A program made the translations under genes and the position numbers. Below the pieces are notes generated by a model that was given only the letters and a program-made list of their open reading frames with translations, searched no databases and was not told the origin of the DNA. Of a DNA stretch of 11,440 bases, positions 1 through 10,352 are shown piece by piece (position 1 is the first letter of the stretch; each line of letters begins with the position of its first letter). The DNA is taken from the IMG/VR virus record IMGVR_UViG_2585427781_000005. The stretch is one strand, 5' to 3'. The stretch is from a virus. Lineage: Duplodnaviria; Heunggongvirae; Uroviricota; Caudoviricetes.

Positions 1-1
1 C

Positions 2-961
<960 letters not shown>

Positions 962-1090
962 AAACTGGGGATAACGCCTTAAATGGCGAAGAAACGGTCT
1001 AAATAGGCTGATTCGATGTGTTTGCGGGAAAAAAATCGGCCCAGATCCGCGAAATTTTAATCAGCGAGTCAGCTTGGGAAGAAATGACCT

Positions 1091-1106
1091 GCTTATTCGC
1101 ACCTTC
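1091..1106. repeat. IS5 terminal inverted repeat (16 bp)
   Basis: cttattcgcaccttcc is read directly from the sequence, 130 bp downstream of the transposase stop. Confidence 0.8.
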
Positions 1107-1395
1107 CTTAAGTGAAGATGCTTGACGAATCGCCAAATAAAACATCTTCATCAGCATAAAAATCCATATATGATTGAAAATTTAGTCATTAATACCATTC
1201 ATATCTGAATACTGACCTAATATGCTTACTAACCGTGAGAAATCTTTTTTTTCGACTTAATCACTCGAAATAAACTTTCACTCAATTGAAAACAATTAGC
1301 TACAATTATCATTGCAATATCAAATCAAACATAACAACTTGCATAAATTCTCATGGGATACAGCATCAGTTGTGCCAAACACATAAGGAATTGAA

Positions 1396-1593
1396 ATGGA
1401 CGGAGAAAGCTTTAACTTTGATGACAATGATATTGAATTTATTGCTTCAATGTATGCATCATGTAAATTATCAGGAAGCATCGCCCCCATAATGCATATA
1501 ATGGTTAGCATTCCAAGAAATAAGAAAAAACAATTCTACGAACGAGTTGAGCATTATTGTAGTTTATATTCCAATAAAAACCCACCTTCTTAA
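1396..1593 (+). CDS. hypothetical small protein, 65 aa, acidic N-terminus (MDGESFNFDDNDIEF...), no recognisable family
   Basis: ATG at 1396 is preceded by AAGGA (1385-1389) with a 6-nt spacer, a near-ideal Shine-Dalgarno arrangement. The frame is open for 65 codons to TAA at 1591-1593, unusual in stop-rich AT-rich DNA. A TACAAT -10-like hexamer sits at 1301-1306. No homology is recognised. Confidence 0.3.
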   Translation: MDGESFNFDDNDIEFIASMYASCKLSGSIAPIMHIMVSIPRNKKKQFYERVEHYCSLYSNKNPPS

Positions 1594-1725
1594 ATTCGCT
1601 GCATTCTAGTGGATTCCATTAAGAAAACAATGACATACACTCAAACACATCTTTTTTATCAACAGTGAATTTCAGTTCGGCCAGTTTTTACCAGCTATTA
1701 TAAAAATAGCATCCATATAAAGTTT

Positions 1726-1829
1726 TTACCCCACAGGTACAGCTGGCCATTCGATAACCGCACTAAGGAAGTGCCAACACGATATCAGCAAGACCCGATA
1801 TTTCTTCCATGCCGCCAGCAACGATGTTA
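1726..1829 (-). pseudogene. remnant of the 3' end of a second, diverged tfa (tail fiber assembly) gene
   Basis: Minus-strand translation gives ...[32 protein letters not shown], against the intact Tfa C-terminus ...[32 protein letters not shown]. The DNA at 1726-1826 aligns colinearly with 2412-2512, with matching ends and a divergent centre. Upstream of ~1830 the frame is AT-rich with no Tfa similarity. Confidence 0.55.
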
Positions 1830-2044: not shown

Positions 2045-2146
2045 ATGAAAATACAAAGCAAGCTAATTGTCTTATTAAACATTATCATTGCATTTATATT
2101 ATTTGAGCTTTTAGCTCAAAAATTTGGTTTGAGTACATTATTTTAA
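2045..2146 (+). CDS. hypothetical 33-aa hydrophobic peptide MKIQSKLIVLLNIIIAFILFELLAQKFGLSTLF (one predicted transmembrane helix)
   Basis: ATG at 2045 to TAA at 2144-2146. The N-terminus has two lysines followed by an ~18-residue hydrophobic stretch. It sits between a promoter-like element and a clear intrinsic terminator. There is no obvious Shine-Dalgarno, and AT-rich codon bias gives I/L/F/K-rich ORFs by chance. Confidence 0.2.
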   Translation: MKIQSKLIVLLNIIIAFILFELLAQKFGLSTLF

Positions 2147-2294
2147 AGCAAGATAAACAATATCGGGCACTCTAGTTTTTATAATTAACAATTAAACGTC
2201 CATAAAATGTTATTTACTTTTGTTCGCTATTGTCATATCTTAATATAGTGGCTTACGCCACTCTACTTTCATCACATTTTGTACGTTTATGTAC

Positions 2295-2328
2295 TCGCCA
2301 TGAAGCTCTTTCATGGCGATTTTTTATT
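2295..2328 (+). terminator. rho-independent terminator (10-bp stem, 5-nt loop, T-tract), plus-strand specific
   Basis: tcgccatgaa (2295-2304) pairs with ttcatggcga (2310-2319) around loop gctct, followed by ttttttatt (2320-2328). The minus-strand reading lacks a U-tract after the hairpin, so it ends a plus-strand transcript converging on tfa. Confidence 0.6.
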
Positions 2329-2411
2329 CTTAATCCAAGAACATACTCCCTACCTATAGCAAAATCACTTTTTGAACAAAAGAATAACGTATTTAGGTAA
2401 TCATTACGAAT

Positions 2412-2993
2412 TTACCCTATAGGTGCTACTGGCCATTCAATATCCGGTGCAGTTGTTGTATTAACACGGTTCAGCAACACCCGATACTTTTTCCAGGCTT
2501 CCAGCAACGAGTTTTCTTCCTCCGTTGCGATTTCCAGATCTACAGCATCCTGAAGTGGCGCAATATGCTCATTCGCTGCCTGCATCAGGCTGTTTTTTGT
2601 TTCTTCCGCCTCCCGGATCCGGAATAGTTTTTCTGCTTCTGCATCTTTCACCCAGGCTGTGCCGTTCCACTTCTGAAACTCCCCTTCCGGGGATAACCAG
2701 GTGACATTTTCCGGTAATGAGCCGAGTTCAGAAATAAATAACGCGTCGCCGGAAGCCACGTCATAAACCGTTTTACCCCGATGATCTTCAACGAGATGCC
2801 ACGATAACTCATCACTGTTGAAAACAGCCACGAAGCCAGCTGGAATATCTGGCGGTGCAATGTCGGTACTGTTTGCTGGCAGACCTGTATGAGGCGGAAT
2901 ATATGCATCACCTTCACCAATAAATTCATTAGTTCCGGACAGCAGATTATAAATTTTTATGGTCCGTGCTTGTTCACTCATTCTGAATGCCAT
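2412..2993 (-). CDS. tfa: tail fiber assembly protein Tfa (lambda Tfa-like chaperone), 193 aa
   Basis: The translation [51 protein letters not shown]... matches lambda Tfa from memory. Its ATG overlaps the stf stop as TAATG (2991-2995). Confidence 0.95.
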
Positions 2994-5900
2994 TATGCAA
3001 GCCTCACAATATAGTTAAATGCGATGTTTTTGACGGTGTTTTCCGCGTTACCAGCAGCGTTAACGGTGATGGTGTGTCCATGTGAACCAATCGCAACCGA
3101 GTGCGTATGCGCACCAATACCTACAGTATGTGCGTGTGCACCTGCGCTTGCAGCAGTACCCGATACAGAGTGCGTATGAGCGCCTGCAGAAGAAGTGTTA
3201 ACACTGTATTTAGAATAATCAGGTGATCCACTTCCCGGAGCACCACTGGAACCACCTGAAACAAATGTCATCGAATGGGTATGTGCACCGGCTGAAGCAG
3301 CCGTACCGCTAACACTATGGGTATGCGCACCAGTGTTATTCGTGGATTTAGTGCCGTAATCAAACGACGATGTGGTTTTCGTCCCCAAATCAGTACTGGA
3401 TGCGCTGGCGCTGTGGGTATGCGATTTTATGCCGTCCTGTTCCTGAGACAATACGGCACGACCACTGGCGGGCTTGCCCTTAATCGTCCAGCCACGCATA
3501 TCAGGGATCACGCCTGACGGATAAGCGGCTGCAAGTTTCGGGTAGGCAGATTTGTCAAAAGTCTGCCCCTGCATCAGGGCATAACCAGACGGAACGGTAT
3601 CTGATGGCCACGGGATTGGTGCGCCGACTGGGTAGCTTTCTGGTGGAAGATTTTTCGAGGTATAAACTTCTGCCCAGTCTTCCTCAAAACCATAACCGTC
3701 TCTTGAAGAACGGTAGAACAGACCACCATTTCTGTAATGCGCCTTCATCTGCAAGGTCCGGCAACTTCCGACTCCGGTATAGAAGTTAACCAGAATATAG
3801 CTGTCGCCAGAGCGGGTGACCTTATAAGCGCCTGATTCGGCATTCCAGGGAACGCCCCCATCCGCATCGGCATATGTATCCGTTGCCCTTCTGGCAAAAG
3901 CAGCCACATGCGCGGCGGTTAAAGTGATATCAGTAGAACCATCAAATGGAACACCGGATATTTTTCTTGCAGTCTGAAGTTTTGTAGCAGTTGCAGCATT
4001 ACCAGTGGTGTTCTGATTACCCGTAGTGTTTACACCTGGAAGGTTAATATTTGCAGAACCGTCGAAAACAACTCCACCGATAGATCTTGCCGTCTGCAAT
4101 TTCGTGGCTGTACTTGCATTACCATTCAATGAACCAGTTAATCCACCTGTAACAGACAACGGACCTGAAACTGTTCCTCCGGTTGTTGGCAGTGCTCCAA
4201 TATCTGATGGTGTAGGTTTCTGATGTGAGCTATACATCGTATAAACAACACCATAGGTAACGCTGGAAGGCTTACTCGCTGAATATGTTGGCGAGGTATA
4301 AACAGAAACTGACGCATTTGCAGTACAATCCCAATGGATATTTACACTCGTCGCATAATTGCCAATCTCAACGTAAATATCATATGTATCGCCGGATGTG
4401 TTGATCCAGGCGAAATTCGTTAATCCGACGGCTGTACGCTTCCACAAAGCCCCGGTAATTCCTTTGGGGTTTCCATTGCCTGCTCGTAGAACCAGTTCTG
4501 AAATGCCTGCCTGATGTGGGGAACCGACGTTGTAACCAGCGCCACCAATCAATGCGATGTAAACGATGGAACTCGCTTGTGGCATGGTAACCGTAGCCAG
4601 TTTGAACCACCCAGCCCCGCCAGAGAAAGACATCGTTACTGAATTTAAAGTACCAATATCTTTCGGCGTTAATGTTATATCCGCAGTCAGTGCTTTTCCG
4701 TTAACTTTTCGGTTAGATGGCACCCTGCTATTCGCATTGTCATTGGCTGCTTTAACTGCTTTTGGCGTTGCGGCCAGCGATTCACTGGTGCTATCAACAG
4801 CACTGCTAAGTTTCACAACACCTTTAGTTGTAAGGCTTGCGTCTTCCATCGCAACTGCACCGGCCATCTCTTCAGCACGATCAGCAGCAGCTTCCGCACG
4901 GGTCGCAGCGGATTCAGCAGTAGTTTTGCTCTGAGATGCTGCCGTCGCACTGCCTGCCGCCTCTGTTGCCTTCGTGGATGCCGTCGTGGCGCTGCTCTTC
5001 GCTGCTGACGCCTGTCTGGTCGCCTCATCTTTTGAAGCAGACGCAGATGATGCCGATGACGACGCCGAACTGGCTGACGATGCGGCAGCCGTTTTTGAGG
5101 ATTCTGCGCTGGTTTCCGACGCTTTCGCGTTCGTTTCGGATGTCTTCGCTGCGGAAGCAGACCTCGCTGCTGCGCTGGCCTGTTCAGTGGCTTCGCCAGC
5201 CTTCGTTGTGGCTGTTGAAGCAGACGATGCGGCGCTTTCTGCCGATTTTCCGGCGGCGGTGGCACTGGCTGAGGCCTGCCCGGCACTTGTTGACGCTGCA
5301 CTGGCAGACGACGCAGCCGCTGTTTTTGAGCCTGCCGCAGCCGAGGCGCTCTGTCCCGCTGCCGTTTCAGAAGACCTGGCGTTCGTCTCTGACGTTTTTG
5401 CCGCCTTCGCGGAATTTCCTGCCGCTGTTGCCGAGGAAGCTGCGCTACTGGCGCTCGAGGATGCGTTCGTTTCTGATGATTTTGCCGCCTCTTTTGAAGC
5501 CGCCGCATCCCGGGCTGAGGTGGCAGCTTCTGACGCTTTCGTAGTTGCGGTGGATGCAGAAGTGGCTGCTGATTGTTGTGACGCTGCAGCATTCGTTTCT
5601 GACGTTTTCGCGGCACTGGCACTGGTAGCTGCCGCGCTTTTTGAGGACTCTGCAGCGGCAGCACTTTTTGATGCTTCAGTAGCCTTTGTTGATGCCGTTC
5701 CTGCGCTGGAAGTCGCTGACTGAGCCGACGACGCGGCCTGTCCGGCTGACGTGCTGGCTGCGCGTGCTGAGCCTGCAGCATCAGTCGCATGGGTTGCCGC
5801 CTCACGGGCTGATGTGCTGGCATCACTGGCTGACTTCTTCGCGGCTGCCGTGTTCTGTGCCACCACGGACGCGTTACGCGCCACCTCTTCCACCATCAGC

Positions 5901-6220
5901 TCAAAACGGCGCAGTGCCTCCGGACGGGCATCATCCTCCGTCATGGCACCGAGAAAATCATTCAGCGTACCGGGTCGGGAATCTTCATACACTGTGATGG
6001 TCCCGGCATGTGACGGCGGGAATCCTTCCACCAACAGACTGACGCTGTACTGACCGTACTCAACGTCCATACTGTAACGCCCGGCTTCATCCGGATTTTC
6101 AGATGCCAGCGTGTTCACCACCACCGTGGTACTGTTACGTTTTGCTTTCAGCTGGATTGTGCAGTTCTGTACCGGTTTTCCTGTGCCGTCTTTCAGTACA
6201 CCTGAAATTTTTACTGCCAT
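2993..6220 (-). CDS. stf: side tail fiber protein Stf, intact, 1075 aa from the ATG at 6220
   Basis: N-terminus [26 protein letters not shown]... and C-terminus ...[31 protein letters not shown] match lambda Stf from memory. The track start at 6226 is a GTG two codons upstream; ATG at 6218-6220 gives the canonical MAVKISG N-terminus and follows GGGG at a suitable distance. Confidence 0.95.
3914..4120 (-). repeat. two copies of a ~29-aa phage tail-fiber repeat inside stf
   Basis: The DNA at 3965-4003 and 4085-4123 is visibly repeated and encodes N-A-[SA][11 protein letters not shown][GS]-G-V-x-F-D-G-S twice. Confidence 0.7.
4847..5854 (-). repeat. low-complexity Ala/Ser/Thr-rich shaft region of Stf with a recurring AAKTSETNA motif
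   Basis: About 335 residues are dominated by A, S and [10 protein letters not shown] occurs three times, 70 and 84 residues apart. This GC-rich, stop-poor DNA accounts for the long overlapping ORFs in other frames. Confidence 0.75.
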
Positions 6221-6231
6221 ATTCACCCCAC

Positions 6232-6284: not shown

Positions 6285-6884
6285 TCAGAATTTATAACCA
6301 ACACCCACGATGAACCCGTCAGTGCGCCAGTCACCACTGCCGGAGCCTTCATAAGCGACATCAATGGCCACGGATTCGGTCGGGTTAAACTGCACGCCAG
6401 CTCCCCACGCCAGAGACGTGTTGCTGTGGCGACCGTCATCACTTCCGGTCAGCACATCGTGCTTTTTCCCCTTGTTGTCAGTTACGTGGAGATAATCCCC
6501 GGAGAAAGTCGACACACGGCTGTAAGCCACACCCGCCATCGCATACGCGCTGAACCATTCATTCACGCGCACAGACGGCCCCGCCATTACGCTGAACCAG
6601 CGGTTACGAACGGAATCTTCATGCCAGCGGGTATCGCTGTAACGGGTAATCTGGCGATTCTTGTCTCCTGCATAGCTGAACGACGTCACCATCCCCAGTG
6701 TGTCCGTAAACTCATAACGGTATTTCACGTTAATCCCGTTCAGATCATCACTGCCGGGAACGTTCGTCCGGGCATGAAGATACCCCGCGCTCAGCGTGGA
6801 CTGATGTTCAGACGCCCATGCAGGCGCACCGGATACGGCCAGACAAATGGCTGCGGACAAAATGGCGGCATAAAGTTTACGCAT
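6285..6884 (-). CDS. lom: outer membrane protein Lom (Ail/Lom/PagC family beta-barrel), 199 aa
   Basis: The translation [38 protein letters not shown]...[10 protein letters not shown] matches lambda Lom from memory, with a signal-peptide-like N-terminus, a C-terminal aromatic residue, and a GAGG Shine-Dalgarno. Confidence 0.95.

Positions 6885-6950: not shown

Positions 6951-10352
<3,402 letters not shown>

Follow-up and report, generated by a model that had tools for sequence, protein, structure and literature searches.

Why a lambdoid prophage should carry a complete tail-fibre assembly gene (tfa) and, 582 bp behind it, the 3' end of another tfa is the question raised by the locus analysed here. 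The locus lies in the window, which is the whole stretch of 11,440 nucleotides that was analysed, from IMG/VR virus record IMGVR_UViG_2585427781_000005. The best explanation, with a probability of about 0.8, is that the fragment is the dead 3' stump of a tfa that once lay directly upstream, in gene order, of the DNA at window 1110–1725, and that it was left there when a tail-fibre cassette was replaced.

The window is the tail end of an E. coli prophage, in which J, lom, stf and tfa are all on the minus strand. In genomes without the insertion element described below, the prophage borders directly on a truncated ydfJ (the Qin site), and the region 1000–2600 is found near-unchanged in about 580 of the 5426 complete E. 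coli genomes. The complete layout of an uninterrupted prophage end is tfa, M1, stub, D, older stub and attR, M1 and D being two short modules. The features of the window are as follows.

6951–10349, minus strand: J.
6285–6884, minus strand: lom.
2993–6226, minus strand: stf, the side tail fibre gene (1077 aa), partner of the intact tfa.
2412–2993, minus strand: intact tfa (193 aa; Caudo_TAP E = 9.5e-44; phrog_105; annotated tfaQ).
1830–2411: module M1, AT-rich, 582 bp, natively located behind this tfa allele.
1825–1845: the novel joint between the truncated 5' end of the stub and the left end of M1.
1726–1829, minus strand: stub 1, a non-functional tfa 3' fragment of 104 bases (32 codons and a stop).
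1115–1725: module D, DNA natively located behind the old tfa.
1108–1114, minus strand: all that the window retains of an older, third tfa 3' stub.
1–1107, plus strand: partial IS5-family element (ISKpn26-like by annotation, transposase ORF 62–961), inserted at the prophage end.

The right end of the IS5 element is at about 1107 and its TTAA target occupies 1108–1111, while genomes without it match from window 1104–1107 onward. This element is missing from most related genomes, and in one of them (L002) an IS5 sits at another place, within M1 near window 2172–2175. The intact tfa, with its stop at 2412–2414, matches the Caudo_TAP profile (PF02413, 131 positions) over positions 1–130 with 149 bits. 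Rfam IS009 (RF02111) is found with 212 bits at window 2452–2650 (minus strand), wholly within the tfa coding sequence, and matches the stub in part (33 bits, 1765–1840); conserved coding DNA of tfa and this 'RNA family' appear to be one and the same. No Rfam family reached its gathering threshold in the stub and M1, where only IS009, MicC and Esr41 were seen below threshold.

The stub lies in direct orientation to the intact gene, on the same strand. Its stop codon is TAA (1726–1728), and the DNA homology to the tfa 3' end extends to 1824, possibly to 1828. The local DNA alignment of the two scores 69, against a mean of 16.2 (sd 2.1, maximum 26) for 500 shuffles, and more permissive scoring gives 43 against 10.7 ± 1.3. 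A repeat search resolves two blocks in one register with a spacing of 686, 1785–1824 with 85% identity and 1725–1760 with 81%, leaving the centre of the stub (1761–1784) unmatched. An earlier note, made from the sequence alone, had described a copy of the tfa 3' end with its stop, in the same orientation, alike at the ends and different in the centre, and had proposed shuffled sequence as the control; this description is confirmed. Overall the stub and the intact tfa are about 75% identical. With no exact match longer than about 10 nt between them, the two copies should rarely recombine to delete M1.

The open reading frame of 49 amino acids that covers the stub (1726–1875) is named 'tail fiber assembly protein' in NCBI records, while PGAP describes homologous copies as 'tail fiber assembly protein; frameshifted; incomplete; missing N-terminus'. 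As read, it matches only positions 100–130 of Caudo_TAP, with 18.8 bits and E = 0.0018, the cutoff being 22.1 bits. Near 1785, directly behind the LL codons, the stub has a +1 insertion, which is common to every copy, and near 1757 a compensating −1 deletion, which is present only in some copies, those of the window lineage. One base more than in the window (GTGCCGGATATCG versus GTGC-GGTTATCG) is present in the copies of the A21-type prophage, from strain A21, and of loci L015 and L021, and with this base the 3' part reads RVGTSLVPDIEWPAAPIG followed by the stop in one frame and the 5' part is in another. The frame-corrected peptide, which ends in RVGTSLVPDIEWPAAPIG and the stop, scores 42.9 bits on Caudo_TAP (E = 6.8e-11), compared to 19.9 bits as read and 49.8 bits for the tail of the intact tfa. 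The stub is thus no functional member of the family, having a partial domain that as read stays at 18.8–19.9 bits, under the cutoff, and a reading frame that is not intact across copies; its native stop and significant frame-corrected homology identify it as a tfa-derived pseudogene fragment.

The segment ISCWHFLSAV in the centre of the translated stub is about ten codons read out of frame and not an allele signature, and it is carried by stub ORFs only. The earlier note had taken the stub for a different tfa allele rather than a recent duplication. The colinearity described below does bear out a different, older tfa as the source of the stump, but the argument from ISCWHFLSAV was a frameshift artefact, and for the same reason the absence of an allele bearing this segment, which had been offered as a refuting test, is not a valid one. 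Besides the frameshift state, the stop codon (TAA or TGA) varies between copies, and a W>R change occurs. Because the frameshift states differ between copies, the stub is decaying, and the variation fits neutral decay. It is a dead relic that has no function and lacks a start codon from its own lineage.

The origin of the relic is indicated by what lies next to it. A search for distant relatives of window 1110–1740 found about ten genomes with a copy roughly 80% identical. In one of them, E. coli strain 210205630 (locus L030), the homologue of D (window 1110–1725) lies right behind the stop of an intact tfa. Window 1104–1824 is colinear by BLAST with L030 4995–5718 at 78.6% identity, a stretch that comprises D and the last 99 nt of the intact gene. 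The L030 protein ends in IEWPAAPVG and the stub in IEWPAVPVG, and the sequences just past both stops are homologous. The sampled relative with tfa and D is only about 80% identical, so that the direct ancestor was not recovered.

A closer parent was sought by several routes. The search of related prophages for a full-length tfa matching the remnant (tail RVGTSLVPDIEWPA), which had been suggested earlier, yielded none in IMG/VR, among isolated phages or in a protein search. In IMG/VR, an exact 22-mer of the stub centre found stub copies only, a degenerate back-translation of GTSLVPDIEWP found two stub copies and no full-length tfa, and the pattern LAAWKKY found three further, unrelated tfa stubs and no parent. 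In GTDB species genomes, the tfa genes of full length found with LAAWKKYRV belong to other genera and lack the stub tail; the C-terminal tfa motif is conserved as far as distant Enterobacterales, Izhakiella, Citrobacter and Rouxiella having full-length alleles. The best full-length blastn match of the stub among isolated phages was 75.7% identical, and none of these phages had a full-length tfa encoding GTSLVPDIEWP. The protein search with the frame-corrected peptide collected three candidates, all of them stub ORFs, and is uninformative on the parent.

Module D contains an ORF of 65 amino acids (1396–1593, plus strand), which corresponds to the RefSeq hypothetical protein WP_001421370.1. In L030, whose copy diverges by 20% in nucleotides, it is open and of the same length; 9 of the codon changes are synonymous and 20 non-synonymous. 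It matches nothing in Pfam or PHROGs. It is probably a real but weakly constrained gene of the prophage end.

On its prophage-end side D adjoins the third tfa stub, which is about 130 nt long (tfa nt 436–568) and is best seen in the uninterrupted locus L001 (5879–6008), where it aligns with tfa at a score of 46 versus 11.1 ± 1.3 for shuffles. It is more decayed than stub 1. In the window the IS5 element sits in its 5' edge, so that about 7 bases (1108–1114) remain. The third stub is also present behind D in L030 and L031, and none was found in the A21-type prophage. The truncation points of the two stubs differ, lying at tfa nt ~483 in stub 1 and ~436 in the third, which indicates arbitrary breakpoints and argues against a fixed site. 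Independent tfa 3' stubs were observed in three IMG/VR prophage contigs (L032, about 9950–10050; L034, about 6040–6135; L033, about 1750–1840). One of the three is immediately upstream of an stf start codon, and another, that of L033, has an in-frame stop and lies beside a fragment resembling the N-terminus of a Pin/Hin-type invertase. Stubs of tfa seem to be common at module joints.

Module M1 does not always come with the stub. The tfa allele of the window is followed by M1 at 95–96% identity in phages mEp332, PhiR70_1 and ev099, which have no stub behind M1 and diverge into unrelated DNA left of about window 1843. Behind M1 of mEp332 no tfa-like sequence was found (score 11, versus 11.9 for shuffles). 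Among the complete E. coli genomes M1 is present in 831 and the stub in 593, and M1 directly follows tfa without a stub in about 240. The earlier suggestion that the segment 1830–2411 arrived with the incoming cassette finds support in the stub-less tfa-M1 order of the three phages. As M1 follows tfa without a stub in phages, and D follows an intact tfa in L030, M1 is the incoming module, D the old one, and the stub the remnant of the old tfa.

The joint itself reads, on the coding strand, AATTTAACCTTAACA joined to TCGTTGCTGG. One identical junction is found in all 20 of the 20 IMG/VR contigs with the stub centre and in the E. coli loci L001, L002, L006 and L007. Since every stub copy examined has this one junction, the event happened once. 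The flanks of the joint have different histories: compared to the A21-type prophage, which is located next to sitABCD, the window is ~96–100% identical only over ~1750–1930 and 60–80% identical on both sides, while mEp332-type phages are 96–100% identical from 1930 rightwards, 76–90% identical in 1840–1930 and unrelated further left. Locus L031 combines a window-type D with an A21-type M1. We read the junction patch, from these identity profiles, as what is probably a unique joint within a recombining pool of old, diverged modules. In principle, the near-identical patch 1750–1930 could be kept by selection, for example on an unknown element, and not only by linkage. The A21-type prophage (L006 5742–6350) has an intact tfa with a different, longer C-terminus, DVDWPAAPKCNSLELITCE followed by the stop, which is caused by a ~40-nt insertion at the extreme 3' end, just before its diverged copy of M1.

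The events can be ordered as follows. The ancestor would have had the arrangement stf, tfa, D, older stub and att, which is still present in strain 210205630, and L030 (tfa, D, older stub) thus represents the stage preceding tfa, M1, stub, D and older stub. Recombination would then have brought in a new stf-tfa-M1 cassette, which still exists in mEp332, PhiR70_1 and ev099. The left crossover would lie upstream in the conserved tail genes; it was not located, because all compared tfa genes and stf 3' parts are 90–95% alike. At the right-hand joint, the left end of M1 would have been fused, presumably non-homologously, to codon ~161 of the resident tfa, so that 32 codons and the stop of the old gene were left over. 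Later the stub acquired the +1 frameshift common to all copies, followed in the window lineage by the compensating −1; the two together produced the spurious ISCWHFLSAV. Homologous exchange on both sides of the junction would subsequently have given the same joint its different flanks. The same process would have occurred at least once before, leaving the older stub beyond D.

This interpretation of the stub as the scar of a cassette replacement, already put forward in the earlier note, is supported by the tfa-D colinearity of L030, the stub-less tfa-M1 phages and the single junction. The accompanying suggestion, that the stub originated from a crossover at the conserved 3' end of tfa, fails, as a homologous crossover at that place leaves no duplicate, and the stub marks a non-homologous right-hand joint. 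On parsimony, the stub was probably gained, and not lost in the mEp332-type phages. Recombinants of lambda and Rac with a crossover in tfa have been shown experimentally (De Paepe et al. 2014, PMC3945230).

Such crossovers are the basis of a rival explanation, which we consider unlikely, in which a circle carrying M1 and ~100 bp of tfa 3' homology was inserted in the Campbell manner, by a single homologous crossover at the 3' end of the tfa already in place. The complete tfa would be regenerated, a 5'-truncated copy would stand behind M1, and tfa ends would serve as a portable landing pad for morons. The topology of the product is identical (full gene, cargo, 5'-truncated copy, native downstream DNA), the pattern recurs both in tfa-M1-stub-D-stub and in the tfa-ybcY-tfa' order of DLP12-type phages, one junction has different flanks on both sides, and tfa is an experimentally shown recombination site. 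A homologous crossover, however, should leave shared stretches, and the two copies are ~75% identical with a longest exact match of ~10 nt. M1 stands directly behind tfa with no stub in three phages and about 240 genomes, the two stubs are cut at different tfa positions (nt ~483 versus ~436), and a single junction event lies behind all copies, with no sign of repeated insertions. The more general proposal, that tfa 3' ends are portable homology anchors behind any of which cargo such as M1, D or ybcY can be excised and re-inserted by homologous recombination, is given an equally small chance; if true, it would make the end of the lambdoid late operon a recombination-based cassette platform.

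The remaining explanations are far less probable. Had the 3' end of the present tfa been duplicated locally in tandem and then diverged, the direct orientation and close spacing would be accounted for, but the stub is colinear with the tfa of another arrangement together with the DNA downstream of that gene (L030), identity between the copies is 75%, against 95–100% conservation of the surrounding module in hundreds of genomes, and M1 is also found where there is no stub; there is very little room left for this explanation. Hardly any more can be said for a functional mini-gene, in which the 49-aa ORF would encode a truncated C-terminal Tfa peptide. The window copy is open from ATG to the native stop and is called a protein in some NCBI records, yet the frame is open only through the compensating deletion, and it is shifted in L015, L021 and the A21-type copy. 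The 10 residues at its centre are nonsense read out of frame, and its ATG belongs to a part of the module that has a different sequence in phages lacking the stub. The least probable of all is a relic of an invertible tail-fibre switching segment of the Gin/Pin/Cin type. Segments of this kind carry alternative tfa-like (U/U') genes beside tail-fibre genes, the K-12 Qin prophage, located at the same ydfJ site, carries pinQ, and the L033 stub has the invertase fragment next to it. Against this, both copies are on the minus strand and form an in-register direct repeat, not an inverted one, the window contains no invertase ORF, and a working version of the 26-bp crossover consensus of the Hin/Gin type has 0 matches in the window at three or fewer mismatches. 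As a part of a Gin/Pin/Cin/Hin switch the stub was ruled out by its direct orientation and by the lack of an invertase and of a crossover site.

In the cassette-replacement reading M1 is the cargo that came with the new tfa. Two features were recognized in it.

2045–2146, plus strand: hydrophobic ORF of 33 amino acids (MKIQSKLIVLLNIIIAFILFELLAQKFGLSTLF), YncL-like.
2247–2330, plus strand: structured 3' region, hairpins followed by an intrinsic terminator (MFE −27.1 kcal/mol, z = −6.4).

In a comparison with the A21-type copy, at 19% nucleotide divergence, 8 of the codon changes in the 33-aa ORF are synonymous and 5 non-synonymous, and there are no indels. It matches NCBIfam YncL (NF000537) with 25 bits and E = 1.3e-5, residues 1–28 aligning with positions 1–28 of 30, and as the curated equivalog cutoff is 35 it may be called YncL-like at most. 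No match was found in Pfam or PHROGs. The region is present in 828 of the 5426 complete E. coli genomes, and none of the 828 has a RefSeq feature under the ORF. The stem of the terminator, recognized in a terminator scan, is at 2295–2319 and is followed by a T run, and the region 2247–2330 is the best conserved stretch of M1, with 93–96% conservation where other parts have 70–80%. A promoter scan of M1 gave a 9/12 consensus match at 1982–2010, promoter-like sites being no commoner than in shuffled sequence. Short AT-rich inverted repeats of 16 nt around M1 were judged to be at chance level. M1 qualifies as a moron in that it has its own terminator and is absent from the L030-type arrangement while present in others. 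The ORF and the 3' region together look like a prophage moron for a predicted small membrane protein, and the 3' end behind the ORF may be sRNA-like. The 33-aa ORF is more likely to be a real gene than the 49-aa ORF of the stub.

The arrangement has a parallel in DLP12, where the order is tfaD, ybcY and tfaX in the E. coli K-12 gene names. Phages PhiR29_1 and 2G7b carry the DLP12-type order of tfa, a methyltransferase gene on the opposite strand and a partial tfa. Like the window, this type has a complete tfa, opposite-strand cargo and then a partial tfa in direct orientation, and the best nucleotide matches of the stub among isolated phages are DLP12-type second tfa copies (88.9% over 54 nt). 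The partial copy of the DLP12 type, however, consists of ~40 tfa codons, lacks both ends of the gene and is fused to a foreign coding sequence, while the window stub keeps its native stop. The cargo differs as well, being a methyltransferase gene in the DLP12 type and a 580-bp module with the 33-aa ORF in the window.

Exchange of tail-fibre genes among lambda, P2, Mu and P1 was reportedly described by Haggard-Ljungquist et al. in 1992 and by Sandmeier in 1994. Those cases concern shared functional gene segments, whereas the window contains a dead stub and no invertible segment. Hendrix, Juhala and colleagues are said to have described novel joints, gene fragments and morons in the mosaicism of lambdoid phages. 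The window resembles this mosaicism in its module exchange, its joint in dispensable DNA and its harmless remnants. M1 and D are both moron-like, being short, AT-rich and oriented against the late operon, M1 in addition having its own terminator. The stf-tfa region is a documented exchange region, in which lambda recombines with defective prophages by relaxed homologous recombination (De Paepe et al. 2014, PMC3945230). The joints of that study are homology-driven, whereas the right-hand joint of the window shows no detectable homology and is better explained by illegitimate or microhomology joining.

The stub is ordinary phage mosaicism, a well-resolved example of a tfa pseudogene fragment with a 'novel joint'. 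In itself it is of little import, being a non-functional relic that annotation pipelines already flag as a partial tfa pseudogene, and the 49-aa 'tail fiber assembly protein' ORF is better treated as a pseudogene in annotation. Its value is that of a clean worked example of how lambdoid tail-fibre, and hence host-range, cassettes get overwritten. The precursor (tfa-D-stub), the donor (tfa-M1) and the product (tfa-M1-stub-D-stub) are all extant in sequenced E. coli strains and phages, which allows the succession of events to be read from them as from strata.
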